Shown here one piece after another: positions 16,548 to 40,912 of a DNA stretch of 48,142 bases (its first letter is position 1; every line of letters starts with the position of its first letter). The position numbers were made by a program, and so were the translations under genes. The stretch is from NCBI GenBank assembly GCA_029560215.1, contig JAKPZB010000078.1:1-48142 (forward strand), in the 5' to 3' direction. Under the pieces are notes generated by a model that saw only the letters and a program-made list of their open reading frames with translations, ran no database searches and was not told the DNA's origin. The DNA is from Methanobacteriota archaeon. Lineage in GTDB: Archaea; Thermoplasmatota; Thermoplasmata; Methanomassiliicoccales; UBA472.

Positions 16548-16548
16548 G

Positions 16549-16971: not shown

Positions 16972-16973
16972 GT

Positions 16974-18576: not shown

Positions 18577-19218
18577 TTATCGTTGTTCGCAAACGCCCTT
18601 AATGAATTTGAGGACGGTTATCGCGTCCTCCTTTTTAATATCTCGGTAATTCTCCGCAAAAAATCGGTCGAATGACTCGGCATTTTTATCGCCTACGATC
18701 CGTCGGGCCACCTCGCGGAACGCGGTCACCGTCCGGCGGGGATAGTAGATCGCGCGCATCTCGTTCATTATCCCGGCCCTCTGCTCGGCGTCGATGACGT
18801 CGGCCATCCACGCCTGGTCCAAAAGGATCCGCAGGTTCACCAGCGGTTCGGACAGCGGCTCCATGGTCTCCGGGTCGAACACCAACGCTACCTCGTCATC
18901 CCCCTGGACCTCGCCGTTGGCGTACATCCTGAAGATGTGTCCCACTCCGGTCATACCATAATGTCCCATCTCGGCCGCGCGCAGCGCGCCCATGCTCCCC
19001 CCGCCGATGACCTTCACCTTGCGGTTCAGGAGCGAAAGGATCTCCCGGTGCCCGACCGAGCAGCTCTGCAGGAAAACGCCGTCGATGATGCCGACCACCT
19101 CCACGCCTTCCAGATGCAGCAGGTCCCCCCTCTTCACCGGAGGACGGAAATCCGCGTCGAGCACTTCCCTGGCCTCGGACAGGGGAAGGCTCGGACCAAG
19201 GAACACCACCGGCCTCAT
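18577..19218 (-). CDS. tfuA: TfuA-like protein (partner of YcaO for McrA thioglycine formation)
   Basis: 213 aa. VFLGPSL...PPVKRGDL...VGIIDGVF...SVGHREIL...VIGGGSMGALRAAE is typical of TfuA. 4-nt overlap with ycaO. Confidence 0.9.
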   Translation of the reverse strand: MRPVVFLGPSLPLSEAREVLDADFRPPVKRGDLLHLEGVEVVGIIDGVFLQSCSVGHREILSLLNRKVKVIGGGSMGALRAAEMGHYGMTGVGHIFRMYANGEVQGDDEVALVFDPETMEPLSEPLVNLRILLDQAWMADVIDAEQRAGIMNEMRAIYYPRRTVTAFREVARRIVGDKNAESFDRFFAENYRDIKKEDAITVLKFIKGVCEQR

Positions 19219-20408: not shown

Positions 20409-20450
20409 GGGTGGGGAGAACCTCGGAGGAGTCAAAAAACTTTTGCGTGA

Positions 20451-21896: not shown

Positions 21897-21992
21897 GATA
21901 GGCGGGTATCAAAGCTGGTACTATTAATAACTGGTCAAATTCGCGGGATAATCCGCAAACCGATAAATATCCTTAATCACTCCCCATCAGGG

Positions 21993-24189: not shown

Positions 24190-24963
24190 ATGGCAATGGC
24201 GGAAACGGACACGTGGCCAATGGCCAGCGGTGATTATGTCCTAGGGGACGAAGCTTCGCCGGTGGCGGTGCTCATAGTCGGCCGGGGAGCGGTGGAGGTC
24301 CCGCCGGAGCTTTACCGCATCAAGGGCATCCTGAAGACGGAGAACATCGGACTGGAGAGGGTGGTCGCCAACATCATCTCCAACCCCCGGATCCGGGTGC
24401 TGGTCATCTGCGGCAAGGAGGAGTTCGGGCACTTCCCAGGAGCGGCCATCCACGCGCTGATGGAGAACGGAGTGGACGAGCACAGGCGCATTCGGAACAC
24501 CCGATCGGCCATCCCGTTCCTGTGCGACCTGCCGTTGGAGGCGGTGGAACGCTTCCGCCAGCAGGTGGAGCTGGTGGATATCATGGACGACACGCCGGCG
24601 CAGGAGATCGCCGCCTACGACCCTATATATGAGTTCGAGGCGGAGAGCCGGGACCGGCTGGAGAACAAATTGAGGGAACTGGCCGGAAGGACCTTCGAGC
24701 CGTTTCCCGGAGAGGCCATGTTCGTTCGTTCCAAGGCCTTCGCCGGGGAGGGCGTAAGCGTGGCCAAACAGCTCCATCTGGCCTCGGACGATTTCATCAC
24801 GCCGATGCTCCGCCTTCCCTCGGACGGGCTGAACACCGACATGGGAATGGTCCTGCTGGACCAGGAGTTCGGCGTGGTGCTCGAGCCCTTGCAGGGCAGG
24901 ATCATCACCGTGCCGTCCGTAGAACTGGCCATGAGATTGCGTTCGTATCTAACGGGGTTCTGA
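24190..24963 (+). CDS. Soluble MtrA-like (MtxA-like) corrinoid protein
   Basis: WPMASGDYVLGDEASPVAVLIV...GILKTENIGLERVVANIISNPRIRVLVICGKEEFGHFPGAAIHALMENGVD...AIPFL matches the MtrA cobamide-binding domain, including the conserved His. There is no C-terminal hydrophobic anchor. Confidence 0.8.
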   Translation: MAMAETDTWPMASGDYVLGDEASPVAVLIVGRGAVEVPPELYRIKGILKTENIGLERVVANIISNPRIRVLVICGKEEFGHFPGAAIHALMENGVDEHRRIRNTRSAIPFLCDLPLEAVERFRQQVELVDIMDDTPAQEIAAYDPIYEFEAESRDRLENKLRELAGRTFEPFPGEAMFVRSKAFAGEGVSVAKQLHLASDDFITPMLRLPSDGLNTDMGMVLLDQEFGVVLEPLQGRIITVPSVELAMRLRSYLTGF

Positions 24964-24964
24964 C

Positions 24965-25849
24965 ATGTACAAGTTCCAAACCGCGCAGCGGGAGATCGAG
25001 ATCGGCGGGGTCAAGGTCGGAGGACAACCGGGAAAGAGGCGGACCATGCTGGTCGGTTCGCTCTTCTACCCGAGGCATTCGGTGGTGCTCGATCCCCGCA
25101 AGGGTGAGCTGGACCGGGCGAAGCTGAACGAGAGGCTGGACAGCTATCTGAACACCATCGAGAGATGCGGCTGCCCCTCCGGCCTGATGCTCTACGCCGA
25201 AAGCTGCGAGTCCGCCCGGGCCTACCTGGAGGCGGTGTGCGACAAGGTCCCCGGACCGCTGTTCGCCGATTCCGGCAGCGCCGAGGTAAGGCTCTCCTTC
25301 CTCCGCAGCGCCCAGGAGATGGGCGTCCTGGACCGGGTGGTCTACAACACCATCAACGCCGGCCTTTCCGAGGAGGAGACCCAAGCGCTGAGGGAATGCC
25401 CGCCGGTGAACGCGGTGGTCCTGGCCTTCAATCCCCGGGGGGACGACGTCAAGGGAAGGATCTACATGCTGGAGAGCGGGGACGATCTGATCCCCCAGGG
25501 ACTGGTCCCGGCGGCGGAGGAGCTGGGGATACGGAACCTGCTCATCGACACCGCGGTGACCTCGCCGGACCTCAGCGCCGGGTCGGCCCTGCGTTCCATC
25601 CTGGTGGCCAAAGCGAAGTGGGGGATCCCCACGGGATGCGCCCTCCACAACGCGGTGGAATGCCTGAGGCTGGATGGGTTGGAAGATCCCAAGGAGGCCC
25701 GGCGCAGCGTGGACGCCTCAGCGGTGGCCATCAGCATCATGTCCGGGGCGGACTACGTGGTCTACGGTCCCTTGGAGTACGCCAAGCGGACCATGCCCGT
25801 GGCGTCCTTCACCGACAAGATGATGGAGCAGGCGGCCCGGGACCTATAG
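24965..25849 (+). CDS. MtrH-like (MtxH-like) methyl-pterin:corrinoid methyltransferase
   Basis: N-terminus YKFQTAQREIEIGGVKVGGQPGKRRTMLVGSLFY and ...LLIDTAVTS... resemble MtrH. Starts 1 nt after the mtrA-like stop. Confidence 0.8.
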   Translation: MYKFQTAQREIEIGGVKVGGQPGKRRTMLVGSLFYPRHSVVLDPRKGELDRAKLNERLDSYLNTIERCGCPSGLMLYAESCESARAYLEAVCDKVPGPLFADSGSAEVRLSFLRSAQEMGVLDRVVYNTINAGLSEEETQALRECPPVNAVVLAFNPRGDDVKGRIYMLESGDDLIPQGLVPAAEELGIRNLLIDTAVTSPDLSAGSALRSILVAKAKWGIPTGCALHNAVECLRLDGLEDPKEARRSVDASAVAISIMSGADYVVYGPLEYAKRTMPVASFTDKMMEQAARDL

Positions 25850-26689: not shown

Positions 26690-28339
26690 CTACGCGTCCT
26701 CTCCCTTCTTGACGATCTTCAACGCGCTGAAGTTGTAGACGCTCTCCGGGCAGACGGCCTGGCAGTTCTTGCAGGCCGTGCCGAGGCAATGCTCGGTGTT
26801 GACGCGGATGAGGAACTTCTTGTCCCCCATGGCAGTGACCTGCAGGGCGCACTCGGGGCATTCCTTCTGGCACTTCTTGCAGCCTATGCAGCCCTCGAAG
26901 GAGCCCATGAGATATACGCCAACATCGTCCAGGGTCCTCAGGCCGCGAGCGCCGATGACCGGGATATCCGAGAGCACCAGACGGATGGTCTCCTTCGGGC
27001 GTACGATGTCCGGGAGCGGGCGCAGCCCGGCGTGCCTGACCATCTCGTTGTACATTTCCATGGACATGCCCTCGGTCCAGTAGGCAATCTCGTTGACGTA
27101 GATGTCCTCGAACACCTTGCTGGTGGCGAACATGATGTGCTTGCTGGATATCGCGTTCGCCACATCCTGCATCTTGTCCAGGCCGTCGTCGTCCACCAGG
27201 ATGTCGTAGGACATCATCAGGGAGGTGTTGCCGGCCTGCACGGTCTTCTCCAGGACCCGGGGGATGAGGCCCACGGTCTGGGCCTTGATCGGATCGACGT
27301 AGGTTCCGGAAGCGCCGGCCATGTACATGGTCCTGATATCCGTGTCGTCCACGCCGACCTCCTCGATCAGGGTGCGGTGCCCGGCGCGGATGGCTCCGAT
27401 GGCCTTTCCCGCCTCGCGCACGTCCTCCTCGCCGAAGTAGATGCCGTTGGTGAGGTGTATCTTCCGGTCGGGGGTGTTTACGTACGGCAGCTTTATCACG
27501 CCGGTCTCCAGCCCGATGGCCATGGCGGCCACGGTGCCGGTGCCGGTTATTCCCCGGGCGACCACGCCGTCCAGGCGCTGCTCCTCTCCAGTGCTGGGGT
27601 CCACCAGGGCCGATCTGACCGGGTGCAGCTTGTCGTTGAGAACGATGTTGTACCATCTTCCGTTCTCTCCGAGCACGATGTCGGATATGGCCTGTGGAGC
27701 GGCCAGCATGCCGAAGTCGATGGACTGCCCCTCCATGGCCGGTCCGGCGGCGGCGGAGCCGGTGTACAGCTCGCCCTTGTAGAACAGGCCCATCTCAGCG
27801 TTGGTGCCGTAATCGGTCACCATGCAGGTCTCCTTCTTGTCCATCAGCCCGGTCTTCATGATCATGGCCAGGGCGTCCGCGCCTATCTCATGGCGGATGG
27901 ACGGAGGGATGCGGACCTCGGCGGTGCGCTTGACCGAGCTCATTCCCAGCTCCTCGGCCTTTAGGGAGTGGGCCTTGCGCTCGGGGACCTTGACGTTGAG
28001 CCTCTTAAGTATGGACTGGCCGGCGAAGGCCAGGTCGCGGATCTCGATCTTCTCGAACATGGACATCTGGGCCGGGTTCCCGCATACCGACACGCGCTCG
28101 ATCTCCTCGGCCTTGGCGCCCATGGTGGCGATCAGCTTGTCGACCGTCTCGATGACAATGCGGTGCCCCACGTCCGCGCCGTTCTCCATCCAGAAATGAA
28201 GATGGTCCATGATGTTGGCCCCGGGAAGCGGGTGCCTCATGGTTATGGCCGTAGCCAGGATCTTGCCTTTCTTGTCCAGATCTACCAGGTGCCCCCGGTA
28301 ACCGCTAGTTCCTAAATCCAGCGCGACTCCCAATGCCAT
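26690..28339 (-). CDS. ramA: RamA-type corrinoid protein reductive activase (ASKHA ATPase plus 2x[4Fe-4S] ferredoxin domain)
   Basis: ALGVALDLGTSGYRGHLVD at the N-terminus, and C-terminal CIGCKKCQKECP and CLGTACKNCQAVCP. ATG at 28339 with a GAGGT Shine-Dalgarno element is preferred over 28396. Confidence 0.85.
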   Translation of the reverse strand: MALGVALDLGTSGYRGHLVDLDKKGKILATAITMRHPLPGANIMDHLHFWMENGADVGHRIVIETVDKLIATMGAKAEEIERVSVCGNPAQMSMFEKIEIRDLAFAGQSILKRLNVKVPERKAHSLKAEELGMSSVKRTAEVRIPPSIRHEIGADALAMIMKTGLMDKKETCMVTDYGTNAEMGLFYKGELYTGSAAAGPAMEGQSIDFGMLAAPQAISDIVLGENGRWYNIVLNDKLHPVRSALVDPSTGEEQRLDGVVARGITGTGTVAAMAIGLETGVIKLPYVNTPDRKIHLTNGIYFGEEDVREAGKAIGAIRAGHRTLIEEVGVDDTDIRTMYMAGASGTYVDPIKAQTVGLIPRVLEKTVQAGNTSLMMSYDILVDDDGLDKMQDVANAISSKHIMFATSKVFEDIYVNEIAYWTEGMSMEMYNEMVRHAGLRPLPDIVRPKETIRLVLSDIPVIGARGLRTLDDVGVYLMGSFEGCIGCKKCQKECPECALQVTAMGDKKFLIRVNTEHCLGTACKNCQAVCPESVYNFSALKIVKKGEDA

Positions 28340-28507
28340 GGATAACCTCGAGGGGAGGAATGCCATCGTCGGATTTATAATACTGTTCCCCTTCATCCCC
28401 CCGTCAGAAAGGTAGGCCAGCCTGCGGCCATGGTGGCGTTTATCGCGCCCCGCTCCGGGACAACGGAATTATACCTGAAAGGCCCTTAACGGCGCTAGTG
28501 TGATTAC

Positions 28508-29173
28508 ATGAGGATCGCCCAGGTGACTGGTTTCTTGGGGAGCGGCAAGACCACCTTCCTGATCGAGGTGGCCAAGGAGCTTAACTCCCGCGGGCTCAAG
28601 GTGGCCACCATCGTGAACGACGTCGGCCATATCAACGTCGACCGCAAGTGCATGGAGGTGCACGGCATCGACACCATGGAGATATCCGGAGGATGCATCT
28701 GTTGCGAGGTGCAGGGCACCCTCACCACCACGGTGACCAACATCTACATGAGCTACCGGCCGGACGTCATTCTGGTCGAGCCCACCGGCGTGGCCATCCC
28801 CCTCGGCCTCAAGCAGGCCGCGGCGGAGACGGTCAAGAAGATGCCCAAGGTCCTGGAGCAGTCGCCGATCGTCACCTTCGTGGACGCCATGCGCATCGAC
28901 AAGCTCATGAACAACGTCCGCCGGCTGGTCGAGACCCAGATCGTGGAGGCGGACGCCGTGCTCATCAACAAGGTGGACGCGGTGAGCGATGAGCGCCTGC
29001 GCCAGGTGACCGAGATGGTGACGGGGCTGAACCCGGAGGTACGGTTGTTCTACGGCTCGTCGCGGACAGGGCAGGGCGTCAAGGAGGTGGCCGACCTGAT
29101 GGTGCATGGACAGGCGGTCACCTACGACCTCTCGGACGCCGAGGAACGCTTCGACCGGAAGTACGGGGAGTGA
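28508..29173 (+). CDS. CobW/COG0523-family G3E GTPase, GTPase domain only
   Basis: P-loop GFLGSGKTT, metal motif GCICCE, VEPTGVA, and NKVD. Ends after about 220 aa. Confidence 0.85.
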   Translation: MRIAQVTGFLGSGKTTFLIEVAKELNSRGLKVATIVNDVGHINVDRKCMEVHGIDTMEISGGCICCEVQGTLTTTVTNIYMSYRPDVILVEPTGVAIPLGLKQAAAETVKKMPKVLEQSPIVTFVDAMRIDKLMNNVRRLVETQIVEADAVLINKVDAVSDERLRQVTEMVTGLNPEVRLFYGSSRTGQGVKEVADLMVHGQAVTYDLSDAEERFDRKYGE

Positions 29174-29177
29174 ACGG

Positions 29178-29630
29178 ATGGACCAGAAGGAAAGACAGCT
29201 TCTCACCCACCGCGCCTCGGACGAGCTGGGAAAGTTCTCCATGTGGTTGCGTTTGTACATCACCGACCCCTTGGACGGAGCGCGATCGGAAAAGATGGTC
29301 CTGGACCTTATGAACGGAATAACCAAGGAATGCTTCGCCCGGGGGGCAGACATGATCGGGCACGTCAAGTCCTTCCTGACCGCCGAGGGCGGCTCGACCA
29401 TATCGGTCAGCCTAATCGACCTGGACATCCCGCCGACGGTGCAGAACCGCTTCGACGGCACCATGATGAGCCGGGGCGAGCTCATCGTCCATGTCATCGT
29501 GCACGGGATGTGGGACCCCCAGGTCCGTGAGACGTCGCTGGAGTTCACCAAGGGGTTCATGGCCGAGCGCTCCATCGACTACGAAGTGATCAACGACTTC
29601 TACGAGAAGGAGAAGCGGGTCAAGGACTGA
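29178..29630 (+). CDS. Possible detached CobW C-terminal-domain-like protein
   Basis: 150-aa ORF starting 4 nt after the GTPase stop in another frame. The combined length (about 370 aa) equals a full-length COG0523 protein. GHVKSFL...ISVSLID weakly recalls the CobW_C beta pattern. Confidence 0.4.
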   Translation: MDQKERQLLTHRASDELGKFSMWLRLYITDPLDGARSEKMVLDLMNGITKECFARGADMIGHVKSFLTAEGGSTISVSLIDLDIPPTVQNRFDGTMMSRGELIVHVIVHGMWDPQVRETSLEFTKGFMAERSIDYEVINDFYEKEKRVKD

Positions 29631-29669: not shown

Positions 29670-30719
29670 ATGTTCCCGCGTGAAAGGTTCGAGGCAGCTT
29701 TTGAGAAAGCCCCCGCCGACCGACCGCCAATCATGTATCAACATCTCGGGGCGGCGAGGACCGTTCTTAACGCCGCCGGGCTCACCATGCGGGAGGGCTT
29801 CCACGACCCGGAGAAGTTCGCCAAGATATGCATCATGGCCCAGCGCATCACCGGCTTCGACAACGTGATGGCCGGATGGGGGGACATTCTGGTCGAAGCG
29901 AGGGCGCACGGCACCCGGTGGAGGTGGCCGGAGAAGGACTATTACCCGAGGTCGGACGGCTACGCCATATCGTCCCTGGCCGAACTGGACAAGGTCCAGC
30001 CCGTCGATCCCATGAAGGATGAGTTCTGGTCCGTTCCCCTTCGGGCCGCGGGGCTGCTTCAGGAACGCCACGGCAACGAGGTGGCGGTGGTCGGCTGCAT
30101 CAACGGGCCGATGATGATGAGCGGGGAGATCATGGGTTACGAAAATTTGCTGATGTCCACCTGGTCCGAGCCCGACCTGGCCTCTCAGCTCATGGACCGC
30201 ATGCTGGAGTCGTCGCGGATGTACGGCGAACACCTCTCAAGGATGGGGATCGGCCACGTGTTCATCGAGGATGGCACCTGCTCGCCGGACGTGAACTCCA
30301 TAGAGGGACTGCGGAAGTTCGATCTTGGGTATCTGTCCAAGCTAATGGCCTCCTTCCGTTCAAACGGAATAAGGTCCATCGTTCACAATTGCGCGGTCAA
30401 TCCCTATACAGATGGTTACCTGGAGATGACCATCGAGGCACTGCATCTCACCCCCAAGGCCGATGACCGCAAGGCGGCCTACGACAGATTCCGCTCCCGG
30501 ACTACGGTGATTGGAGGAATAGACCAGACCTTCCTGCTCTTCAAGGGCACCCCTGCGCAGGTGGAGGCCGAGGTCCGGGGAATGATGAACGATTGGGGCG
30601 ATGCTCCGGGCTTCATGATCGCCCCGGGATGCGAGATGCCCTTCAAGACCCCGATCGAGAACATCATCGCCCTTAGAGAGGCTGCTGCAAGATGCTACTC
30701 CGGGTCGGGCAATGGTTGA
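29670..30719 (+). CDS. URO-D-family methyltransferase (MtaA/MtbA/CmuA-like), divergent member
   Basis: 349 aa. N-terminal RERFEAAFEKAPADRPPIM, putative Zn ligands in VHNCAV (HxC) and APGCEMP. Confidence 0.7.
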   Translation: MFPRERFEAAFEKAPADRPPIMYQHLGAARTVLNAAGLTMREGFHDPEKFAKICIMAQRITGFDNVMAGWGDILVEARAHGTRWRWPEKDYYPRSDGYAISSLAELDKVQPVDPMKDEFWSVPLRAAGLLQERHGNEVAVVGCINGPMMMSGEIMGYENLLMSTWSEPDLASQLMDRMLESSRMYGEHLSRMGIGHVFIEDGTCSPDVNSIEGLRKFDLGYLSKLMASFRSNGIRSIVHNCAVNPYTDGYLEMTIEALHLTPKADDRKAAYDRFRSRTTVIGGIDQTFLLFKGTPAQVEAEVRGMMNDWGDAPGFMIAPGCEMPFKTPIENIIALREAAARCYSGSGNG

Positions 30720-30892: not shown

Positions 30893-31909
30893 TTGTCCGA
30901 AAAATTGACTCCGAGGGACAGGGTATTAGATGCCCTTAAGGGAAAGAAGCATGACAGACCCCCGGTCGCGGTCTTCACTCAGAGCGCTACCATGGGACAG
31001 ATGGACAGACTCGGTGTGGCCTGGCCGGAAGCCCATTACGACATCGATAAGATGGTGACCTTGGGCGGGGGACAGGCCAAGATCTTTGGGTTCGAGGCCG
31101 TCAGGGCTCCGTTCTGCCTTACCGTAGAGGCGGAGAGCCTGGGCATGACCGTTGACAAAGGCCGAAAGGACCGTACCCCGATGGTCAAGGGACACTCCGC
31201 GGCCATGGAGGACGAACCGGCCCTCATTGATGTCGGAACCTTCCTGAAGTCGGGCCGCGCGGCTATCGTTCAGAAGGCCGTCACCAAGATGAAGGCGGTC
31301 TATGGCGCCGAGTACCCGGTGATCGCCGGGAACACTGGACCGTTCACCCTGGCCGGTCACCTGGTCGGTACCGAGAACTTGGTGCTGTACATCATGGTCG
31401 ACCCACCTCTAGTGAACAAGTGGGTCGAAGCGGCTAACGTCATATGCAAGGGATACAGCCAGGCCCTGGCGGATGCTGGAGCAGATGTCGTCCAGATGTC
31501 CGAGCCTTCCGCTAGCACCGACCTGCTCTCGCCGGATATGTTCGATGATTACGCAGGCAAGTACGTGGCAGACAGCCTGGCCCCGGTCAAGGGAGCCACA
31601 GGCGTTCTGCACATCTGCGGCAACACCACCGACATCCTGAACAACATGATCAACACCGGCGTCAAGGCCCTCTCCATCGAGGAGAAGGTCGTCCCGGAAG
31701 AGGCGGTCAGGATCGTCAACCACCGCGCCGCACTGATCGGTAACGTCGGTGTGGTCAACCCGCTGCTGCAGGGAACCCCTGAGGACGTCCTAGCCCACGG
31801 AAAGCGCTGCGCTGCCGCCGGCTTCGACGTGGTGTCCCCGGGATGCGGCCTCTCCGCCCTGATCAAGGACGAGAACCTGGCCGCCCTGGTCAAGGCCGTA
31901 AAGGGCTAA
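30893..31909 (+). CDS. Methylcobamide:CoM methyltransferase (MtaA/MtbA type)
   Basis: 338 aa. LTPRDRVLDALKGKKHDRPPVA, LHICGNT (HxC) and SPGCGLS Zn-ligand motifs. TTG start with GGAGG 8 nt upstream. Confidence 0.85.
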   Translation: MSEKLTPRDRVLDALKGKKHDRPPVAVFTQSATMGQMDRLGVAWPEAHYDIDKMVTLGGGQAKIFGFEAVRAPFCLTVEAESLGMTVDKGRKDRTPMVKGHSAAMEDEPALIDVGTFLKSGRAAIVQKAVTKMKAVYGAEYPVIAGNTGPFTLAGHLVGTENLVLYIMVDPPLVNKWVEAANVICKGYSQALADAGADVVQMSEPSASTDLLSPDMFDDYAGKYVADSLAPVKGATGVLHICGNTTDILNNMINTGVKALSIEEKVVPEEAVRIVNHRAALIGNVGVVNPLLQGTPEDVLAHGKRCAAAGFDVVSPGCGLSALIKDENLAALVKAVKG

Positions 31910-31929: not shown

Positions 31930-33042
31930 TCATTTTTCCTTTTTTCTTGCTTTTCCATCCTGGTCGAAGTACCGTCCCTTGAACCATAGCGACAGATTGA
32001 CCAGGCTTATGAGCGCCGGCACCTCCACCAAAGGTCCGACCACCGCGGCGAAGGCCACCCCCGAACCGATGCCGAAGACCCCTATGGCCACGGCGATGGC
32101 CAGCTCGAAGTTGTTGGAGGAGGCGGTGAAGGATTGCGCGGCCGCGTGCGGATAGTCGAAGCGCAGCTTGATGGAGAGATAGAAGGAAAGCAGGAACATC
32201 ACCAGGAAGTATATCAGCAGGGGAATGGCTATGCGAAGGACATCAAGAGGCAGCTCGACCAGGTACTCGCCCTTCAGGGAGAACATCACCACGATGGTGA
32301 ACAGCAGAGCGAGGAGAGAGACCTTGCCCATGACCGGCATGAACCGCCCGTCATACCATTCCGGCCCCTTCCTTTTTCTAAGGAAGCGGCGGGTCAGCAT
32401 CCCTCCGAAGAAAGGTATGCCGAGATATATCAGGACGGTGACCGCGACCTGCACTATGGTTATGTCGACCTCCACCCCCGAGCCGGGAACGAGGGCCTCG
32501 GAAAGCACGAACACCAGGAAGTAGGCGTAGAAGGCGTAGAGGGCGATCTGAAAGAGGGAGTTGAGGGCCACCAGGACCGCGGCGTACTCGGAATCGCCCT
32601 TGGCCAGCTGGTTCCAGACCAGGACCATGGCGATGCAGCGGGCGATGCCCGTCAGGATCAGGCCGATGCGGTACTCGGGGAGATCGGGAAGGAAGATCCA
32701 GGCCAGGACGAACATCAACATCGGCCCGACCAGGTAGTTGAGGAGTAGCGAGACCGAGAACATCCTCTTGGTCTCCGGCATGCGGGTCAGTTTCGGAAGG
32801 TCCTCGTACCTCACCTTGGCCAGGGGAGGGAACATCATGAGGATGAGGCCGATGGCGATGGGCAGGGAAGTGGTCCCCACGCTCAGGGAGTCCAGGGCAT
32901 CGGCCAGACCGGGAACGGCGGTGCCAAGCCCGACCCCTATGGCCATGGCCAGGAAGATCCATACGGTCAGGTACCGGTTCAGGAACGAAAGCTTACCCGA
33001 GGCGTTCGACACTGTGTCACCTGCTCGGTAATCGCGGTTCAA
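31930..33042 (-). CDS. acr3: ACR3-family arsenite efflux transporter
   Basis: About 370 aa, 10-TM pattern. [23 protein letters not shown] and the ...[14 protein letters not shown]... segments are typical of ACR3. Confidence 0.85.
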
Positions 33043-33158: not shown

Positions 33159-33401
33159 TCATTCCTTGAGCATCTCGACCAGTTCGCCCACCGGAGGGAC
33201 CTTTCCCATGAACCTGAGCATCCCGTCGATCGCCAGGGCCGGGGTGACCATTATTCCCCGGTCGGTAATGGCATCGATGTCCTCGATCTTGACCACCTCG
33301 GCCTTAATCCCGGCCTGGTCTAGGGCCTCGATGACGTTCCTTTCCAACCTCTTGCATTTGGCGCATCCGGTACCGAACACCTCAATCTTCACGATCTTCA
33401 A
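33159..33401 (-). CDS. Small thioredoxin-fold protein (redox-active disulfide protein 2 type)
   Basis: 80 aa. MKIVKIEVFGTGCAKCKRLE...TPALAIDG with a CxxC motif. This type is commonly paired with the permease family found upstream. Confidence 0.8.
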   Translation of the reverse strand: MKIVKIEVFGTGCAKCKRLERNVIEALDQAGIKAEVVKIEDIDAITDRGIMVTPALAIDGMLRFMGKVPPVGELVEMLKE

Positions 33402-33437: not shown

Positions 33438-34478
33438 TCATCCTGCTAACGCTCCGAATATCATACCGGCGACGGTGGACATCAGTACCACCAACAACGC
33501 ATACGCCACCGTCTTCTTCACGCCCATGATCCGTCCCAAGACCACCAGGGAGGGGGCGCTGATCGTTGGACCTGAAAGGAGGAGGGCAAGGGCGGGACCG
33601 GCGGCCATGGCCCCGGTGGAATAGCCGAAGGTGGTACCGATTATGGGAACCTCCAGCAGGGTGGGCATATAAAGTATCGTGCCAAGGATGGAAGCGAGCA
33701 GGTTGGCCGATGGTGAATTATCCCCCAAATACGGAGAGAAGGTCTCTGGAGGAAGGAAATATGCCAGGACGCCTACGGCGAATGTCCCGACGAGCAGAAT
33801 CGGCACTATCTTCTTGGCCAGGTCCCATGTCTCCATTCCCCAGTCGGTGATCTCGTCCCTCTCGAAATGATATATCGCCAGATAGGCCACCAGAAGGGTC
33901 AACGCATACACCATCGGCAACTTAACAAGCCAATCCAGCGGTGAAGCGCCTATCACCAGGATGAGGATCAGGAGGGAGAAGAAGCTGAGGATCACCCATT
34001 TCGGCTTTTCCTCCCCGCTCGATGGCAGCTTGAACTCGCCTTTGGGCCGCTCATTGCGGAACAGACCGGCCATGATCAGTCCCACCAGCATCGACATGCC
34101 TATCGCGGCGATCGCCCTGGCGATCCCAATATCGTAGCCGAGCACTTGGGCGGTGTAGATGATGGCCAGGACGTTTATACCCGGTCCGGCGAACAGGAAG
34201 GTGATCGCTGGACCCAATCCGCTCCCTTTTTTATAGATGCCAGTGAAGAGGGGCAGAATGGTGCAGCTGCACACCGCCAGCACCAGGCCGGATATGGAAG
34301 CCACCGGATATGATATGTATTTCCGGGTATGTGGACCGAAGTACTTCAGGATGGCCTCCTTCCTGACAAAGGCGGCGATGGCACCGGCGATGAAGAACGC
34401 CGGTATCAAGCAGGTGAGGGTGTGCTGGGAAACGTACTCGATCAATCCATCGATGCCGCTCCGCAACGCCCCCAACAA
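33438..34478 (-). CDS. COG0701-type permease (ArsP-like)
   Basis: 346 aa, multi-TM, with the conserved vicinal Cys motif AVCSCTILPLF. Confidence 0.75.
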   Translation of the reverse strand: MLGALRSGIDGLIEYVSQHTLTCLIPAFFIAGAIAAFVRKEAILKYFGPHTRKYISYPVASISGLVLAVCSCTILPLFTGIYKKGSGLGPAITFLFAGPGINVLAIIYTAQVLGYDIGIARAIAAIGMSMLVGLIMAGLFRNERPKGEFKLPSSGEEKPKWVILSFFSLLILILVIGASPLDWLVKLPMVYALTLLVAYLAIYHFERDEITDWGMETWDLAKKIVPILLVGTFAVGVLAYFLPPETFSPYLGDNSPSANLLASILGTILYMPTLLEVPIIGTTFGYSTGAMAAGPALALLLSGPTISAPSLVVLGRIMGVKKTVAYALLVVLMSTVAGMIFGALAG

Positions 34479-34638: not shown

Positions 34639-36606
34639 TTACTTCTTCTTCCCCTTGGGCGCCGGGTCCCCGGTAGCCCGGGCGACGATATCAACCCAGG
34701 CGGTCTGCTCCCCTTCCACGTTGTCCCCGCCGAAGAACTTGTTGTGATAGACATCGCTGCGCACCCGTATGTTCTCCGCCCCCGCCTCGTAGACCTTGTT
34801 CCGCACGTACTCCTCGGCCTGCCGACGGGCGGAGCTTATAGCCTGCTCGACATGACCGTAGGTGGTCGGCGTTCCGAAGGGGCCCAGCACGAAGAACACG
34901 TTGTCCATGTTCGGGAAGACCTGGGCGGTGACCGTTTCGGATATCTGGCTGCAGACGGCCCCCACCGCGTTGCCGACATCGTGGTCCTTGGGCATGATCA
35001 CCTTGACGTTCATGCGCTTCTCGAGAGGAGGCATGTAGATATGGGTCGGCGCACCGATGCCTACCAGGGGCCGGTCCAGTCCGGTATGGGAGGTGATGCT
35101 GCTATTATGGTTGCCGTTCACCGTCGACCTCAAGAGGTAGTTGAAACCAGTCGTGCCTTCCATATCGCCCGACTCGTCCAGCACCACCTTGCGCATGACC
35201 TCTTCGCCCACCCGGGTGATGAACTCCTGCTGGAAGGATTCCACGTAGTCCTCGAAGGATTTGTGCGCCCAGTTGGCCATGAACTGCACGCCCAGGCGGG
35301 CCGCCTCCACGTCAAAGCGGTCGAAGTACCCCTGCACGTGCATGAAATCCGTGGCGGTGAGCCCGGTCATCTGCAGGAAGCCGCGGTCCTTGAGATGCTT
35401 GACCACGTCCCGGTAGGTGTAGACCTCGGGATTGCCCAGCCGGACCTCCTCCAGGGTGCTGATGGGATGGGCTTTGACGAACTCGTAGACCGCCCTCTCC
35501 TTAGGGGAGAGCTTGGTCACCGCCCTATCCACGTGAACATAGTAGTTCGTCTCGCTGGTGGAGTTCATCTTCTCCTTGAGCCCCGGATAGGACGCCGAGG
35601 CGACCGACAGCGGCACCACCCGTTCCGGTCCGATCTTGAAGTTGCCCCGCTGATCGGACTCCACGTGGGAATCCCCTCCCAGACCCACGGTCCAGATGTC
35701 GATGGCCCGAACCCGGGTGCGCCAATGGCCGACGGTGGCCCCTTCCTTGGAGATGCGGGGGAACCCGTCATCCAGATAGGCGATGTCCGTGGACGTCCCG
35801 CCGATGTCCACCACGATGAAGCTTTCTTCCTTGCAGAGAAGCTTGCCGCCCATCAGGCTGGCCGCCGGCCCGGACAGGATGGTCTCCACCGGCCTCTCCC
35901 GGGCCTTATCGATGTTCATCAGCGTCCCGTCGCCCTTGAACACCAGGATGGTGGCATCGACGCCCCTTTCCTTCAAGGAACGTTCCACGCCGTCCAGGAA
36001 ATCGGAGATTATCGGCAGCAGGCGAGCGTTCAGCACCGCGGTGACGCTCCGTTCCGGAACCCCCAGCTGGGAAGTGAGATGATGTCCCAGCACCACCGGG
36101 AGCCCGGTGCGTTTCTTGATCATGCGGGAGGCTTCCAGCTCATGCGCGGGATTATAAACGCTGAAATGGCTGGAGACCACGAAGGAATCGACCTCCTCCT
36201 TCATCTTATCCACCGCCTGCTCCAGAGCTTCGGTGTCCAGGGGCGCCAGCTGCTGGGCCCAGACCCCGTGACCACCCTTGATGTAGGCGTCCATGTCGGC
36301 GCCCGAACGGTAATCGCCCATGGGCGTCCAGCCGATCCCGATGTGCCCGACCTTTCCTCCCTTTCCGGTGAGGATGGAATTGGTGGCCAGCGTCGTGGAT
36401 AGCCCTACGAACTGGATGTCCGCCCGGTCGAAGGCGTCGCTCGCCAACGCTTCATCGATAGCCCCAAGTATACCTATAGATAGATCATGATAGGTGGTCT
36501 GGGACTTGCCCTTGGACAGAACCTCCAAGGTGTCCATGTCCACGACAGCCGCGTCGGTGTATGTCCCACCGGTGTCCAGACCCAATCCCAGTCGTCTCGT
36601 CGCCAT
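34639..36606 (-). CDS. Hydantoinase/oxoprolinase A-family (ASKHA) protein
   Basis: LGLGLDTGGTYTDAAVVD at the N-terminus and a second DIGGTSTDIA motif. About 655 aa from the ATG at 36606 (the longer ORF reaches 36660). Confidence 0.8.
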   Translation of the reverse strand: MATRRLGLGLDTGGTYTDAAVVDMDTLEVLSKGKSQTTYHDLSIGILGAIDEALASDAFDRADIQFVGLSTTLATNSILTGKGGKVGHIGIGWTPMGDYRSGADMDAYIKGGHGVWAQQLAPLDTEALEQAVDKMKEEVDSFVVSSHFSVYNPAHELEASRMIKKRTGLPVVLGHHLTSQLGVPERSVTAVLNARLLPIISDFLDGVERSLKERGVDATILVFKGDGTLMNIDKARERPVETILSGPAASLMGGKLLCKEESFIVVDIGGTSTDIAYLDDGFPRISKEGATVGHWRTRVRAIDIWTVGLGGDSHVESDQRGNFKIGPERVVPLSVASASYPGLKEKMNSTSETNYYVHVDRAVTKLSPKERAVYEFVKAHPISTLEEVRLGNPEVYTYRDVVKHLKDRGFLQMTGLTATDFMHVQGYFDRFDVEAARLGVQFMANWAHKSFEDYVESFQQEFITRVGEEVMRKVVLDESGDMEGTTGFNYLLRSTVNGNHNSSITSHTGLDRPLVGIGAPTHIYMPPLEKRMNVKVIMPKDHDVGNAVGAVCSQISETVTAQVFPNMDNVFFVLGPFGTPTTYGHVEQAISSARRQAEEYVRNKVYEAGAENIRVRSDVYHNKFFGGDNVEGEQTAWVDIVARATGDPAPKGKKK

Positions 36607-36656: not shown

Positions 36657-38021
36657 TCAAAGCAATATGGCGATGGGGAGCAAGAGCAGAACGAAGGCCG
36701 CCGCCGCGGTGCCGGCCAGCTTGAACCTCCCGGTCACCCCTTTCGTCCTGGCCCAGCAGAACATGGTGATGATGGAGAGGAGAGCCATCTGGAGGCCGCC
36801 CAGCAGGACGTACTTTTCCCCCACGCCGCTGAAGTCGTCGATGCGAATGTTAACGGCCATCAGGATGACCGCCAGACCTTCCAGGGCGATGAACGCGGTC
36901 GCCACCAGGAACGCTGAGGACGTGATGCGCCTGGGCCACTTGCTCAGCCCTGGGTGGGTGGAGACCAGCCAGGCGATGATGGCGATCATGGAAAGTACCA
37001 GCAGCTGGACGCCGGCCAGGCGGAAGGTCCTCTCCAGGATCGTTCCCAGCCCTTCTATGTAGGTGTTGGCGGCCAGGGCCATGGCGAACACGCCCTCGAA
37101 CGCCAGCATGGAGAGGGCGAAGGTCGGCAGGAACACCTTCGGGTAATGTCGGTCTAGCGGTTCCTTGCGCACCTTCCAGAGAACGGGAGCTATCAATCCT
37201 AGAGCGAAGAGCTGGGAGACCCCGGCCACCACCACCACCTTGATCACGCTACCCACTCCGTCCACGGCCACCGCTCCGACGTAGAAGGTGGCGAATACGC
37301 AACCGGCGGCGATCGTTCCTCCCAGGACGGTCATGGCCACCAGGCTGGGCCAGCCGTTGAGGAACTTGGGCAGCTTGGGGGCCAGCCAAGGATCGTAGGC
37401 CAGGGTCCAAAGGATGAACGTCAGCAGGCCGAGCGTCATCAGGACCAGGCCGCCGTTGGATATGGTGCTCTCCTGGAAGCCGGTGACCCCGATCACCCGG
37501 GTGGTTCCAGCTATTCCGTAGGCGACCAATCCCTCCACGGCTATCAACGCGGCGGCGATCTGCCCGAACGAGTCGGTCAGCCAGTTCTCCGACCTAATAC
37601 TGCGGAGCCGCCACAGACGCAGGGAGATGATGCCGATGCCGAAGAGCTGCCCTCCCACCAGCACTATCCATTTCTTTCCGACCCCTCCGAAGTCGGTGAT
37701 GAACACGTCTCCGGCCAGCACGGCGATGGCGATGCCCTCCACCGCCACCAGCCCCATGCCCAGATAGGCGAACAGGCTCAGAAGCCTGATCAGGATCGGT
37801 CTCTCCAGGTCGGGGAAGGCCATCGTGAAGGCCCAGACCGCGGTGATGAAGACCCCCAGGACCGCCAGCTGAACGGCCGCCAATTGGAAGGTGGAGGCCA
37901 TGATGGTCCCGACGCCGTCTATTCTGGTCACATCGGCCAGGCTGAGAGCGAAGAAGCCCTCGAAGGCGATGGCCCAGCCCAACAGGATGCCCGACAATGT
38001 TCGGTTGGATACGCCCTTCAT
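36657..38021 (-). CDS. Integral membrane protein built from six tandem repeats of about 70-75 aa (two TM helices each)
   Basis: Repeats share A-x-EG ... I-[DE]-G-x-G ... G-[VG]-Q-[LM] ... W. Examples: AFEGFFALSLADVTRIDGVGT..AAVQLAVLGVFITAVW, AVEGIAIAVLAGDVFITDFGGVG..GGQLFGIGIISLRLW, AFEGVFAMALAANTYIEGLGT..AGVQLLVLSMIAIIAW, ALEGLAVILMAVNIRIDDFSGVG..GGLQMALLSIITMFCW. Confidence 0.7.
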   Translation of the reverse strand: MKGVSNRTLSGILLGWAIAFEGFFALSLADVTRIDGVGTIMASTFQLAAVQLAVLGVFITAVWAFTMAFPDLERPILIRLLSLFAYLGMGLVAVEGIAIAVLAGDVFITDFGGVGKKWIVLVGGQLFGIGIISLRLWRLRSIRSENWLTDSFGQIAAALIAVEGLVAYGIAGTTRVIGVTGFQESTISNGGLVLMTLGLLTFILWTLAYDPWLAPKLPKFLNGWPSLVAMTVLGGTIAAGCVFATFYVGAVAVDGVGSVIKVVVVAGVSQLFALGLIAPVLWKVRKEPLDRHYPKVFLPTFALSMLAFEGVFAMALAANTYIEGLGTILERTFRLAGVQLLVLSMIAIIAWLVSTHPGLSKWPRRITSSAFLVATAFIALEGLAVILMAVNIRIDDFSGVGEKYVLLGGLQMALLSIITMFCWARTKGVTGRFKLAGTAAAAFVLLLLPIAILL

Positions 38022-38075: not shown

Positions 38076-38912
38076 TCAATCTGAACCGGCGGAACCATGG
38101 ACGCGTTCCCCGGCGGTGCTCGTGATGGTTCCTTCTCCGCCAGCGGCGGATGTCCTCATGTAAAGGTCGTTGATGGTCTCGAGCGACCTCTGGCCTTTCG
38201 GGGTGAGCGCGTAATCGCCGCGGCCGCCTCTCTGGAACACCATGCCGGTGCCGGTGAGCCTCTGCAGATGGAAGAGCAGGTTCCCTCCTCGCAGATTGGT
38301 CAGGGAGGAGAGCTCGGTGAACGAGCGCTGCGATCGGCTCAGCGCTTTCATGATCAGCATGCGCTGGGGGTTGGACAGCGGTTCGAGGATGTCCCGAACG
38401 ATGATCTCCTCGGGCATCAGGTCGATGCTGTCTCTGATCTCTTCCTTGCTGCGGTAGAGCCCAAGCTGCCGCATCAGTTCGGTCTGGTCCTGGAATAGGG
38501 AACCGACCTCCCGGAAGCATCCATCGCACCTTCCCGCCACGGCTTGGGACCTCAGGGATTCCAACTTTTCTGATTGCCGGTCGAGGTCCTCCTCGGTCAC
38601 CCTCGGCCGGTCGAGCAGGCTGAGGTTCTCGTCAAGGAGCTCCATGAACCTCTGACGACACTCCGGCCGCATCTCGCATCTCTTGGCCATACCCGCGTCC
38701 AGCCGGCTCGCCGCCTTCTGCCGCGCCTCGTCTCTTAGCAGATCGAAGACCTCCGGCCGTCGGAGCTCGGAGCCCTGAGAGCTCCTCAGCAGGGCGGTTA
38801 TGTAACGAAGCTCCAGCCCCATCTCCTCCACCTTCTGTTTGAGCTGAACTATCTCCTTACCAACGGCATCCTCGTGGACGGTCATTTCGCACCGATACAT
38901 GATAATGACCAA
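38076..38912 (-). CDS. ArsR-like wHTH protein with a long Cys-containing coiled-coil N-terminal region
   Basis: C-terminal LSNPQRMLIMKALSRSQRSFTELSSLTNLRGGNLLFHLQRLTGTGMV is an ArsR/SmtB-type wHTH. The N-terminal roughly 170 aa contain CEMRPEC and RCDGC pairs. Confidence 0.65.
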   Translation of the reverse strand: MVIIMYRCEMTVHEDAVGKEIVQLKQKVEEMGLELRYITALLRSSQGSELRRPEVFDLLRDEARQKAASRLDAGMAKRCEMRPECRQRFMELLDENLSLLDRPRVTEEDLDRQSEKLESLRSQAVAGRCDGCFREVGSLFQDQTELMRQLGLYRSKEEIRDSIDLMPEEIIVRDILEPLSNPQRMLIMKALSRSQRSFTELSSLTNLRGGNLLFHLQRLTGTGMVFQRGGRGDYALTPKGQRSLETINDLYMRTSAAGGEGTITSTAGERVHGSAGSD

Positions 38913-39002: not shown

Positions 39003-39638
39003 TTAGTGCTTCAGGAGCCTGATCGCTTCGCGAACGGCTTCGTTGGCGTCGTAGCCCCAGCCGTCTGCGCCGATGCTCTTGGCAAAGTCCGCAGAGGTGG
39101 CGCCGCCACCGATCATGGTCTTTACCTTTCCCTTCATGCCGCCCTCGGCCAGCATCTTCTCGATCTCCTTCATGCCCGCCAGGGTGGGGGTCATCAGGGT
39201 GGAGGTCGCGACGATCTGAGCGCTCTCGTCCTTGGCCTTCTGCACGATGTCCTTCAGGGGCACGTCGCGGCCGAGGTCGAAGATGGTGTTGCCAGCGCCG
39301 GTCAGCAGGGCCTTGACGATGTTCTTGCCGATGTCGTGAACATCTCCCTCGACCACGCAGAGGACGATCTTTCCGGCAGCCTCAGCGGAGGCGGTGTCCA
39401 GCTTCGGCAGGGCCAGGTTCAATCCCTGGTACAGGGTCTGGGCGGACAGCAAGACCTGGGGCAGGAAGTACTCCTTCTTCTCATACTTCTCGCCGACGAT
39501 CTCCATCGCCTTGCTCAAGCCGTTGAAGATGATCTCCTTGGCGGAGACTCCAGAGTCAAGGAGCTTCTGGGTCTCTCCCTTGGCTTCCTTGATCCTCCCC
39601 TTAACCACTATGTCAATCAATGCGTCCATGTTTGCCAT
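39003..39638 (-). CDS. Cobalamin-binding corrinoid protein (MtbC/MttC/MtmC size class)
   Basis: B12-binding DxHxxG motif (EGDVHDIGKN), an N-terminal four-helix cap region, about 211 aa. ATG at 39638 preceded by GGAGGAAAATAAA. No cognate substrate methyltransferase is adjacent. Confidence 0.9.
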   Translation of the reverse strand: MANMDALIDIVVKGRIKEAKGETQKLLDSGVSAKEIIFNGLSKAMEIVGEKYEKKEYFLPQVLLSAQTLYQGLNLALPKLDTASAEAAGKIVLCVVEGDVHDIGKNIVKALLTGAGNTIFDLGRDVPLKDIVQKAKDESAQIVATSTLMTPTLAGMKEIEKMLAEGGMKGKVKTMIGGGATSADFAKSIGADGWGYDANEAVREAIRLLKH

Positions 39639-39704
39639 TTTATTTTCCTCCAAAGAAGTTTTCTGCGTCCAAATTTCAATCGAGACTAATAAACCCTTGG
39701 ATGG

Positions 39705-39799: not shown

Positions 39800-40912
39800 T
39801 CATGCGTTTTTGTAAATAATTTCGCCGCATGACGCGCACCGGCCTTCGATCGTCCGGTCGTCGATCTCGGAATATGATGGGCAGAACTTGCTGAGGCGGT
39901 TGCCTTCATAGACCACCTTCTCCGAGACCTCCGTGGCCGCCCTGCCGATGACCAGAGAACTGCATCCTGGGCAATATGTCTGATGCTCGTCGCCCTCCAC
40001 CATTCCGCTCAGGTAAACGAACCTCAACCCCTGCGAGATCGCCCTGGCCTTAGCCTCCCTCATCGGCTGCATTCCGGTCGGCTGAAGATGAGAGAGCCGG
40101 TGGGCGGGCATGAAACGGTATAGGTGAATCGGCACTTCCCTTCCCAAGCCCGCCGCCCAGCCGAAGAAATCGTTCAATTCTTCCTTCCCGTCGTTCAACC
40201 CGGGGATGATCAGATAGGCCAGCTCGAGATGCCTTCCGCCTTCGCGGATCATCTGGCAGGCTCGCAGCACTGGGGATAACGTCCCTCCGCAATTGACCCT
40301 ATAGAATTCATCTCTGAAGCCCTTGACGTCCACCTTGAAAACGTCCACCGATTCCAGGAGATCCTTGAGCGGCCCCGTCTCCACGTAGCCGTTGGTGTTC
40401 ATCATGATGTAGAGATGGCGTTCCTTGGCCAGCCTGCCAGTGTCGATGATGAACTCGCTCCAGACCACCGGCTCGTTGAAGGTGAAGGCGATCCCCTGCA
40501 CCTTTTTATCCAAGGCGAAGGAGACCAGCTCCTCGGGGGACGTCACTGGCTCGCTCCGCCCCTCAGGACCCGACGAGGCCAGGGCGGCGTTCTGGCAACA
40601 GTCGCAGTCCAGATTGCAACCGAAGGTGCCTACGGACAACAACTTGCTGCCCGGGCGGTAATGATAGATTGGTTTCTTCTCGATCTGGTCCACCGCCTGG
40701 GCGCAGACGCGGCCGTAATTGAGGGCGAACAATGCACCACCGATAACCCCGCGGGTCCGGCACTTGCCCAGACCGCCCTCGGGAATGGAACAGCGATGAG
40801 GGCACAGGCCACAGACAAAGCTAATCCCCTCTGGAACGCCCCACCTCGCCGGCCGAACCCCGCCATTAGACCCTGGATCAATAATCGTCATCCTCGCTTT
40901 GGGATGCACCAC
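39800..40912 (-). CDS. Radical SAM enzyme of the AmmeMemoRadiSam / PflA-like (COG1180) type
   Basis: N-terminal CGLCPHRC...GKC cluster, radical SAM motif GCNLDCDCCQN (CX3CX2C), C-terminal CPGC...CASC zinc-ribbon-like pairs. 370 aa. Confidence 0.7.
   Translation of the reverse strand: MVHPKARMTIIDPGSNGGVRPARWGVPEGISFVCGLCPHRCSIPEGGLGKCRTRGVIGGALFALNYGRVCAQAVDQIEKKPIYHYRPGSKLLSVGTFGCNLDCDCCQNAALASSGPEGRSEPVTSPEELVSFALDKKVQGIAFTFNEPVVWSEFIIDTGRLAKERHLYIMMNTNGYVETGPLKDLLESVDVFKVDVKGFRDEFYRVNCGGTLSPVLRACQMIREGGRHLELAYLIIPGLNDGKEELNDFFGWAAGLGREVPIHLYRFMPAHRLSHLQPTGMQPMREAKARAISQGLRFVYLSGMVEGDEHQTYCPGCSSLVIGRAATEVSEKVVYEGNRLSKFCPSYSEIDDRTIEGRCASCGEIIYKNA

Follow-up and report, generated by a model that had tools for sequence, protein, structure and literature searches.

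A gene on the reverse strand of contig JAKPZB010000078.1 (assembly GCA_029560215.1), a 48,142-nt stretch of DNA from a Methanomassiliicoccales archaeon that is hereafter called the window, encodes a repeat protein with 13 predicted transmembrane (TM) helices. By its architecture and family assignment, the protein very probably represents a previously undescribed and very small family. Its six two-helix hairpins alternate between two types, and the repeating entity is a four-helix double hairpin whose Glu and Gln residues are kept or lost as pairs. The gene lies among genes for corrinoid-dependent methyl transfer, and the protein might tentatively be seen as an accessory membrane conduit for this system, for a cation or a cation-coupled small solute; this function is inferred from gene context and residue conservation. 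A Shine-Dalgarno-like sequence, GGGGGAGTGA, stands immediately 5' of the ATG, and no second copy of the family was found within the window.

The repeats were already detectable in the single sequence. In pairwise Smith-Waterman comparisons of the units against 300 composition-preserving shuffles, 13 of the 15 pairs reached z-scores of 3.9 to 18, the closest being units 1 and 5 (z = 18.1) and units 2 and 6 (z = 16.9), while pairs 1/2 and 4/6 were without significance at this level. With unit profiles built from 22 orthologues, hhalign gave probabilities of 90–99% for all 15 pairs. The best E-values were found for odd units compared with one another (5e-14 to 2e-20) and for even units compared with one another (5e-9 to 2e-18). 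Because the odd-odd and even-even comparisons were the strongest, the units alternate between two types, A and B, in an (AB)3 layout. The A-x-E-G motif of helix 1 was located in five of the six units (E21, E95, E163, E309 and E381; unit 4 has AAGC), and the helix-2 Gln of the G-x-Q-L motif was also found in five (Q51, Q125, Q270, Q339 and Q411; unit 3 has V193). An earlier reading of this DNA from the sequence only had described six homologous hairpins, A-x-E-G in five of them, a Gln motif in helix 2 and a particular closeness of units 2 and 6, and each of these observations was borne out, pair 2/6 ranking second to pair 1/5. Its proposal of a sixfold hairpin duplication held for the internal duplication of hairpins but not for the single hairpin as the evolutionary and structural unit, a place that is taken by the four-helix A+B double hairpin.

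A hidden Markov model (HMM) of the unit, applied to 551 family units, summarized the conserved positions: the hallmark Glu (79%) and Gly (89%), A27 (79%), I32 (64%), G34 (69%), G36 (76%), G47 (74%), the hallmark Gln (81%) and Leu (83%) and the closing Trp (69%). The family is defined by an even number of units, A-x-E-G in helix 1, an I-x-G-x-G-G loop, G-x-Q-L...W in helix 2 and a terminal helix with F..L..P. In the window protein, the unit HMM detects six units, and these are followed by the terminal F..L..P helix, whose F442, L445 and P448 are invariant (numbered as in the alignment, one below the protein numbering).

Covariation of the hallmark residues was examined in 49 non-redundant complete members, Glu or Asp at HMM position 19 and Gln or Asn at HMM position 49 being counted as present (Table 1). 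Within a module, the Gln of hairpin A was strongly associated with the Glu of hairpin B, and the Glu of hairpin A with the Gln of hairpin B, whereas the other combinations were uncorrelated. Since the uncorrelated pairs come from the same proteins and share the same phylogeny, they serve as an internal control. The co-losses hit module 1, 2 or 3 depending on the lineage, and their occurrence in different modules marks them as independent events. Among the 45 orthologues in which six units were detected, the Gln of unit 3 and the Glu of unit 4 were both present in 12 and both absent in 33, and neither occurred alone (0/45). In two orthologues of the window protein, the Glu of unit 1 was lost jointly with the Gln of unit 2 instead. 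The lost pairs were replaced by small or hydrophobic residues.

Table 1. Co-occurrence of hallmark Glu (E) and Gln (Q) residues in hairpins A and B of complete family members.
Residue pair	Both	First only	Second only	Neither	Odds ratio	p
Q(A) and E(B), same module	75	0	5	22	not finite	7e-18
E(A) and Q(B), same module	76	2	7	17	92	5e-12
Q(B) and E(A) of next module	32	14	6	1	0.4	0.66
E and Q, same A hairpin	61	17	14	10	2.6	0.067
E and Q, same B hairpin	68	12	15	7	2.6	0.12
First E and last Q of protein	30	10	7	2	0.9	1

This within-module covariation therefore defines the repeating entity as the four-helix A+B double hairpin, with pairs between TM1 and TM4 and between TM2 and TM3. Of the six pairs that three modules allow, the window protein retains five; the sixth is lost on both sides (V193 and G240). 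In module 1 the partners would be E21 with Q125 and Q51 with E95, module 2 would keep E163 with Q270 after loss of its reciprocal pair, and in module 3 the partners would be E309 with Q411 and Q339 with E381. The paired Glu and Gln are probably in physical contact, as their joint gain or loss suggests. Closure of the repeats into a ring, in which the first Glu would meet the last Gln, was rejected because the corresponding covariation was absent (odds ratio 0.9). The carboxylate was retained in 79% of the 551 units although overall identity drops to 20–30%.

An AlphaFold2 model computed from a 25-sequence alignment (predicted local distance difference test score, pLDDT, 82.9; predicted template modelling score, pTM, 0.82) contained 13 regular, unbroken TM helices of 22–27 residues each. 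Five of the six intra-unit loops formed a short beta-hairpin in the model, and that of unit 3 formed a single short strand. Measured from the model helix boundaries, all hallmark Glu and Gln residues lay 7–9 residues below the outer helix ends, so that the model places them in the outer-leaflet third and not at mid-membrane. Lys and Arg numbered about 20 in the inter-unit loops versus about 9 in the intra-unit loops of the translation. By the positive-inside rule, this bias puts the N-terminus and the inter-unit loops in the cytoplasm and the I-x-G-x-G-G loops and the C-terminus outside. A protein of 12–13 TM helices with a buried acidic residue had been expected from the sequence, and the helix count stood at 13 in the model, the Glu being moved to the outer-leaflet third. 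A model of the four-unit relative P0051 was of similar quality (pLDDT 83.2, pTM 0.84).

The confident 13-helix model was without a fold analogue in the PDB. Foldseek searches against the PDB gave no significant match for the six-hairpin model (best E = 0.1, TM-score ≤ 0.31) or the four-hairpin model (best E = 0.6, TM-score ≤ 0.37). The top match of the six-unit model by probability (0.51) and TM-score (0.28/0.31) was 8ugc, a designed flat helix-turn-helix repeat, which with E = 0.36 was not significant.

The main rival explanation, possible though rather doubtful, is that the protein is a scaffold or anchor through which nothing passes. The Glu-Gln pairs would then be interhelical hydrogen-bond clamps joining hairpins A and B, and the helical array would be a membrane platform, for example for docking soluble methyltransferase components or envelope machinery. 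Such a role is consistent with pairs that are strictly both present or both absent and are replaced by small or hydrophobic residues, with the occasional Gln-for-Glu substitution, with a repeat number of 2 to 8 as in solenoid-like repeat proteins, with the designed repeat protein as top Foldseek match and with conserved cytoplasmic-loop motifs such as W-R-L-R...N-W; the location of paralogues in unrelated envelope contexts also fits. However, it is specifically a carboxylate, not any hydrogen-bonding residue, that is kept in most units, and a partner-binding domain is absent, the cytoplasmic loops being just 8–12 residues long. If the role were only structural, the result would be a well-defined new domain family and little beyond.

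The family is small. A word-indexed search of 5.8 billion proteins returned 51 relatives, all unnamed or "hypothetical", and 48 orthologues, full-length or nearly so, were 44–98% identical. An exhaustive profile search of 1.84 billion representatives at 50% identity yielded 76 proteins at E ≤ 1e-3. Every NCBI-named source of family members belonged to Methanomassiliicoccales. By the unit HMM, complete members had 2, 4, 6 or 8 units (approximately 160–190, 300–330, 440–475 and 600–620 aa), and odd counts mostly reflected fragments or one undetected unit. The family is thus a natural modular membrane fold with 1 to 4 copies of a four-helix unit, in which Glu and Gln are gained and lost as pairs, and it could be useful for understanding and designing helical membrane repeat proteins.

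The window protein had no matches in Pfam (E ≤ 0.01), NCBIfam, PHROGs or PADLOC. Pfam annotation was empty for all 51 homologues, eight distant relatives gave only sub-threshold chance matches to Pfam (E ≤ 0.1), and the family profile found nothing among PDB sequences (E ≤ 10). The sequence-only reading had been unable to name a family, and these searches, together with those by Foldseek, agree with it. One metagenomic protein of 788 aa, P0091, has three family hairpins resembling the start of P0077, followed by a long Cys/Thr-rich tail without a Pfam match. Its tail may reflect a genuine fusion with a surface domain, the alternative being an artefact of assembly or of a frameshift. Compared with P0077, it is probably a truncated or chimeric form, and it was left out of the evidence.

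In the window, the gene stands between a Cys-rich protein with an ArsR/SmtB-type helix-turn-helix (HTH) domain and a Hydantoinase_A/MutL-like (HydA-like) ATPase (Table 2). The reverse-strand order is radical SAM enzyme, corrinoid protein, ArsR-like protein, membrane protein and HydA-like ATPase, with gaps of 90, 54 and 50 nt among the last four, the last gap being counted from ATG 36606 as the start of the ATPase gene. The corrinoid protein, the Cys-rich ArsR-like protein and a hydantoinase-family ATPase at most 50 nt away had been noted as neighbours before, which was accurate. In 12 GTDB species, all represented by Methanomassiliicoccales metagenome-assembled genomes, and in further assembly and metagenome contigs, the order corrinoid, ArsR-like, membrane protein, HydA-like ... 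mtaA, URO-D, RamA is kept. In these loci, the membrane protein was 45–77% identical to the window copy, and the identities were 73–91% for the HydA-like ATPase, 84–98% for the corrinoid protein, 78–94% for the methylcobamide:coenzyme M (CoM) methyltransferase MtaA and 87–97% for the corrinoid reductive activase RamA. Across all related clusters, the corrinoid protein was the constant upstream partner (71–97% identity) and MtaA the constant downstream partner.

Gene order is looser among distant homologues, with 23–28% identity. Locus L024, in the complete genome CP058896.1, reads radical SAM enzyme, corrinoid protein, DUF308 protein, homologue, MtaA, URO-D protein (opposite strand), RamA, lactamase_B protein, MtrH and MtrA; our literature search found no paper citing this accession. 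L022 reads corrinoid protein, DUF308, YdjM, homologue, MtaA, URO-D and RamA, and L023 reads corrinoid protein, YdjM, homologue, HydA-like ATPase and MtaA. MtaA lies directly 3' of the homologue in L020 and L045. The homologues of L020, L022 and L024 are on the same strand as mtaA, 175–295 nt upstream of it. The membrane-protein gene is missing from the related cluster L059 (corrinoid, ArsR-like, HydA-like, MtaA) and from L052, which has the same type of order with the HydA-like gene reduced to a remnant. This remnant is a decayed 130-aa ORF (L052 15751-16143, reverse strand) in which just the C-terminal end of the HydA-like ATPase can be recognised (KVIIPQDHDVGNAVGAVCS...). The stretch between the corrinoid gene and mtaA is thus a variable slot, in which the membrane-protein gene recurs without being indispensable. 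Its presence and that of the HydA-like gene vary independently of each other.

A partnership with the neighbouring ATPase, implied by the sequence-only reading, turned out not to be obligate. The six-unit homologues of L020, L022 and L024 occur without the ATPase, L059 has the ATPase without the membrane protein, and obligate pairing of the two was accordingly rejected. Homologues of the HydA-like ATPase number more than 8000 and lie mostly elsewhere, and a 2.55 Mb genome carries two 50%-identical paralogues of it with no family member nearby. Its PDB relatives are 5-oxoprolinase, N-methylhydantoinase and subunits of acetophenone and acetone carboxylase, and our search found no literature linking Methanomassiliicoccales with a hydantoinase.

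DUF308/HdeD-type proteins, whose gene lies directly upstream of distant six-hairpin homologues in L020 and L024, resemble the family in their repeated TM segments rich in small residues. Unlike the family, they are without the Glu-Gln hallmark and have a different repeat length. The window protein did not match PF03729 (DUF308), and hhalign against three DUF308 neighbours gave probabilities of 1.1% with the unit profile and 0.3% with the full-length alignment. DUF308 identity was rejected on this ground.

Methane producers of the order Methanomassiliicoccales are common in guts, digesters and wetlands. They are not known to have the membrane part of the Mtr methyltransferase, and methyl transfer in them is generally regarded as an entirely soluble process. 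A lineage-restricted membrane protein encoded between a corrinoid protein and MtaA is therefore a candidate membrane link, which could mean supply of a substrate or cofactor and possibly ion coupling. As an accessory and dispensable component of corrinoid-dependent methyl transfer, the protein would let a small cation (H+ or Na+) pass or would carry a cation-coupled small solute. The solute might be CoM, a metal that the enzymes require or the compound that donates methyl groups to the divergent URO-D enzyme. Binding or relay would take place at the protonatable Glu-Gln layers of the modules. We tentatively favour this conduit because the carboxylate persists while other sequence drifts, because the gene shares the strand of mtaA and lies close to it in distant lineages, and because permease genes are known inside methyltransferase clusters, as with mttP and mtbP of Methanomassiliicoccus luminyensis (PMC5688252). 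The permeases MttP, MtbP, MtmP and MtpP are likewise polytopic membrane proteins encoded between corrinoid and methyltransferase genes (PMC5688252), whereas the window protein is without NCBIfam or Pfam permease homology, has a different repeat architecture and is dispensable in related clusters; additionally, a cognate MttB- or MtaB-type substrate methyltransferase is absent.

Several observations weigh against a conduit. Searches of Pfam, NCBIfam and PDB sequences, and Foldseek against the PDB, revealed no transporter or channel with a homologous sequence or a similar fold. Alternating-access carriers do not usually have a variable repeat number (2, 4, 6 or 8), repeats that all run parallel or helices without breaks. 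Whole Glu-Gln pairs can vanish, no single Glu is invariant across the family, and a few units carry Gln in place of Glu; the co-loss of Glu and Gln fits interchangeable structural clamps equally well as binding sites. The same ambiguity applies to the ion or cation-coupled channel or transporter suggested by the sequence-only reading, which is so far a conjecture. The membrane protein evolves much faster than its enzyme neighbours, clusters L052 and L059 exist without it, and part of the synteny could stem from inheritance within one order. Moreover, the four- and eight-hairpin paralogues P0051, P0124 and P0049 lie in envelope or glycosylation neighbourhoods with no methyltransferase nearby. 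Mitochondrial carriers, which also consist of tandem helical hairpins in the same orientation, illustrate that such an architecture can transport, but they have a fixed number of three repeats and another signature motif, whereas this family has 2 to 8 hairpins and no match to them in sequence or, by Foldseek, in fold.

The paralogues P0051, P0124 and P0049 have neighbours that include DUF1616, GT2, Rce1-like, PAP2, polysaccharide flippase and UDP-glucose dehydrogenase genes. This setting, and the reach of close-clade synteny into unrelated genes (an epimerase, a DHH phosphoesterase and an RNase H-like protein), would suit a housekeeping membrane protein whose position is synteny inherited within one order, maybe with an envelope or lipid role like that of the four- and eight-hairpin paralogues. 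The gene's slot is variable and its other contents change between lineages, which is also in line with this view. We consider it unlikely, since the position between corrinoid protein and MtaA survives divergence to 23–28% identity while the surrounding genes are reshuffled, and the gene is close to mtaA and on the same strand in four distant lineages. As a side observation, a DUF1616 membrane protein is encoded within a few kb of four- and eight-hairpin paralogues (L001 4829-5890, L004 4215-5264 and L021 5174-6160). The window also has a DUF1616 gene (21603-22985, forward strand), 15 kb from the six-hairpin gene, which may be a coincidence among related genomes.

Homologues of MtrA and MtrH are encoded in the window without MtrB-G. 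In L014, L017, L024 and many metagenome loci, too, the cluster has this pair in its vicinity. MtrAH without the membrane subunits has been noted for environmental Methanomassiliicoccales (PMC6147122). This raises the question of an energy-coupling ion translocator, an analogue of the missing MtrB-G in which Na+ or H+ at the Glu-Gln sites would be coupled to methyl transfer to CoM by MtaA or MtrAH. The soluble MtrA and MtrH in the same neighbourhood, in the window as in L024, are consistent with it. So is the presence of Glu and Gln at one depth between hairpins, which resembles the Na+ sites of rotor-ring c subunits. MtrC, MtrD and MtrE are likewise membrane proteins with intramembrane acidic residues, are encoded near MtrA/MtrH and act at the step from methyl-corrinoid to CoM. 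However, the Pfam models of MtrC, MtrD, MtrE and the c subunit were unmatched, the gene is 11 kb from mtrAH, and the protein is absent from some genomes with MtrAH, being dispensable in the clusters L052, L059 and L080 that keep MtrAH. Its evolution is also fast for a core bioenergetic subunit. Such a translocator is improbable. It is more improbable still that the protein is a new ion-translocating module, unrelated to MtrB-G, that couples transfer from methyl-corrinoid to CoM to H+ or Na+ movement through the Glu-Gln layers. If ion coupling were true, some Methanomassiliicoccales would own an energy-converting methyltransferase unrelated to MtrB-G.

In working principle, the proteolipid c subunit of F/V/A-ATPases is the nearest analogy. 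Both have tandem hairpins in the same orientation with a buried carboxylate per hairpin, often with Gln at the same depth; in both, internal duplication makes the copy number variable, and some copies have lost the carboxylate. Rotor-ring c subunits exist in 1-, 2-, 3- and 13-hairpin versions with carboxylates partly lost. Every testable feature of membership fails, though. The window protein did not match PF00137 in the Pfam scan (E ≤ 0.01), and when the unit profile was compared by hhalign with the c subunits of I. tartaricus and E. coli, the probabilities were 1.1% and 0.1%, so that c-subunit identity was rejected. In c subunits, the carboxylate is in the second helix and the loop faces the cytoplasm, whereas the present family has its Glu on helix 1 of the hairpin (HMM position 19) and hairpin loops that point outward. 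The window protein also has an extra C-terminal helix and beta-hairpin loops, and its Glu-Gln pairing is limited to the A+B modules and does not continue round a ring. No ATPase subunit genes were seen among the scanned genes of the window or the called genes of related loci.

The ArsR/SmtB-type protein has a coiled, Cys-bearing N-terminal half of 170 aa and is likely a sensor-regulator. Its gene, 54 nt upstream of the membrane-protein gene, brings up a metal-ion transporter under its control, which would supply or remove a divalent cation for the Zn URO-D methyltransferases or cobamide proteins alongside a CobW-type GTPase. The CX6C and CX2C motifs of the regulator, the COG0523/CobW GTPase in the cluster and the ArsP-like and ACR3 permeases inserted at the same locus point in this direction, and a set of two Glu and two Gln in each module would make a suitable site for a hard divalent cation. 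Nevertheless, no His, Cys or Met ligands are conserved in the membrane protein, the regulator gives way to DUF308 or YdjM membrane proteins in distant lineages, and the regulator stays with the corrinoid-MtaA cluster in L052 and L059, which are without the membrane protein. We regard a metal-ion transporter as quite improbable.

The ars-like cassette between the HydA-like gene and mtaA varies in content. Some orthologous loci have ArsP and Thioredoxin_3 without ACR3 (L002 adds a gene with a DGC domain), one has ACR3 alone, and several, such as L006 and L010, have no cassette. Given this variability, the site looks like an insertion hotspot. The ArsP, ACR3 and ArsR-like genes suggested a tie with the metabolism of arsenic or methyl-arsenic, but this remains speculation, as the cassette is variable and absent from L006 and L010; a paper on DMAs demethylation names no genes (PMC10579292).

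Table 2. Modules of the repeat protein and further features of the window; +, forward strand; -, reverse strand.
Feature	Position	Strand	Remarks
13-TM repeat protein gene	36657..38021	-	Complete ORF in ORF list and translation; 454 aa + stop, ATG start
Module 1, hairpins A1 (aa 1-72) and B2 (aa 73-145)	37587..38021	-	Unit delimitation, statistics
Module 2, hairpins A3 (aa 146-219) and B4 (aa 220-290)	37152..37586	-	Unit delimitation, residue positions
Module 3, hairpins A5 (aa 291-362) and B6 (aa 363-430)	36732..37151	-	Unit delimitation, statistics
C-terminal 13th TM helix (aa 431-454)	36660..36731	-	F..L..P motif invariant; model helix 430-452
AmmeMemoRadiSam-type radical SAM enzyme	39800-40912	-	247 bits, above cutoff; directly upstream of corrinoid gene
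Corrinoid (B12-binding) protein, methylamine/glycine-betaine type	39003..39653	-	Pfam B12-binding, B12-binding_2; NCBIfam pyl_corrinoid, MtgC, MtbC
Cys-rich ArsR/SmtB-type HTH protein	38076..38912	-	CX6C and CX2C in N-terminal half
Hydantoinase_A/MutL-like ASKHA ATPase	34639..36606	-	655 aa from ATG 36606; Pfam Hydant_A_N, Hydantoinase_A, MutL
ArsP_1 permease (ars-like cassette)	33438-34478	-	
Thioredoxin_3 (ars-like cassette)	33159-33401	-	
ACR3/SBF (ars-like cassette)	31930-33042	-	
MtaA-type methylcobamide:CoM methyltransferase	30893..31909	+	NCBIfam PRK06252, 314 bits, above cutoff
Divergent MtaA/CmuA-family (URO-D) methyltransferase	29670..30719	+	137 bits, below all NCBIfam cutoffs; 22% identical to MtaA copy
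CobW/COG0523-type GTPase	28508-29630	+	Best NCBIfam "CobW-related selenoprotein", below cutoff
RamA corrinoid reductive activase	26690..28396	-	TIGR04270, 705 bits
MtrA and MtrH homologues	24190-25849	+	MtrA 257 aa, without predicted TM helix, C-terminal extension of about 115 aa
YcaO	19215-20435		Core methanogenesis gene
McrB	16974-18302		Core methanogenesis gene
McrA	14098-15762		Core methanogenesis gene
Large radical SAM protein	10499-12331		In block 2758-20435
DUF4443/DUF2111 protein	9513-10502		In block 2758-20435
A2-like double ABC ATPase	7806-9440		In block 2758-20435
BcrAD/BadFG-type ATPase	2758-3981		In block 2758-20435

With its core methanogenesis genes, the window is a methanogenesis island of a Methanomassiliicoccales genome. 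The divergent URO-D protein, whose gene adjoins RamA in all lineages, is a candidate substrate:corrinoid methyltransferase of unassigned specificity. The CobW-type GTPase may be a metallochaperone for the Zn URO-D enzymes. The AmmeMemoRadiSam-type gene had no AMMECR1 or Memo partner in its vicinity, and an enzyme of this type is kept upstream of the corrinoid gene in the distant loci L020 and L024 at 43–45% identity. Finally, the CobW-type GTPase gene overlaps a conserved ORF of 150–174 aa without a family assignment, and both lie directly upstream of the two URO-D genes.

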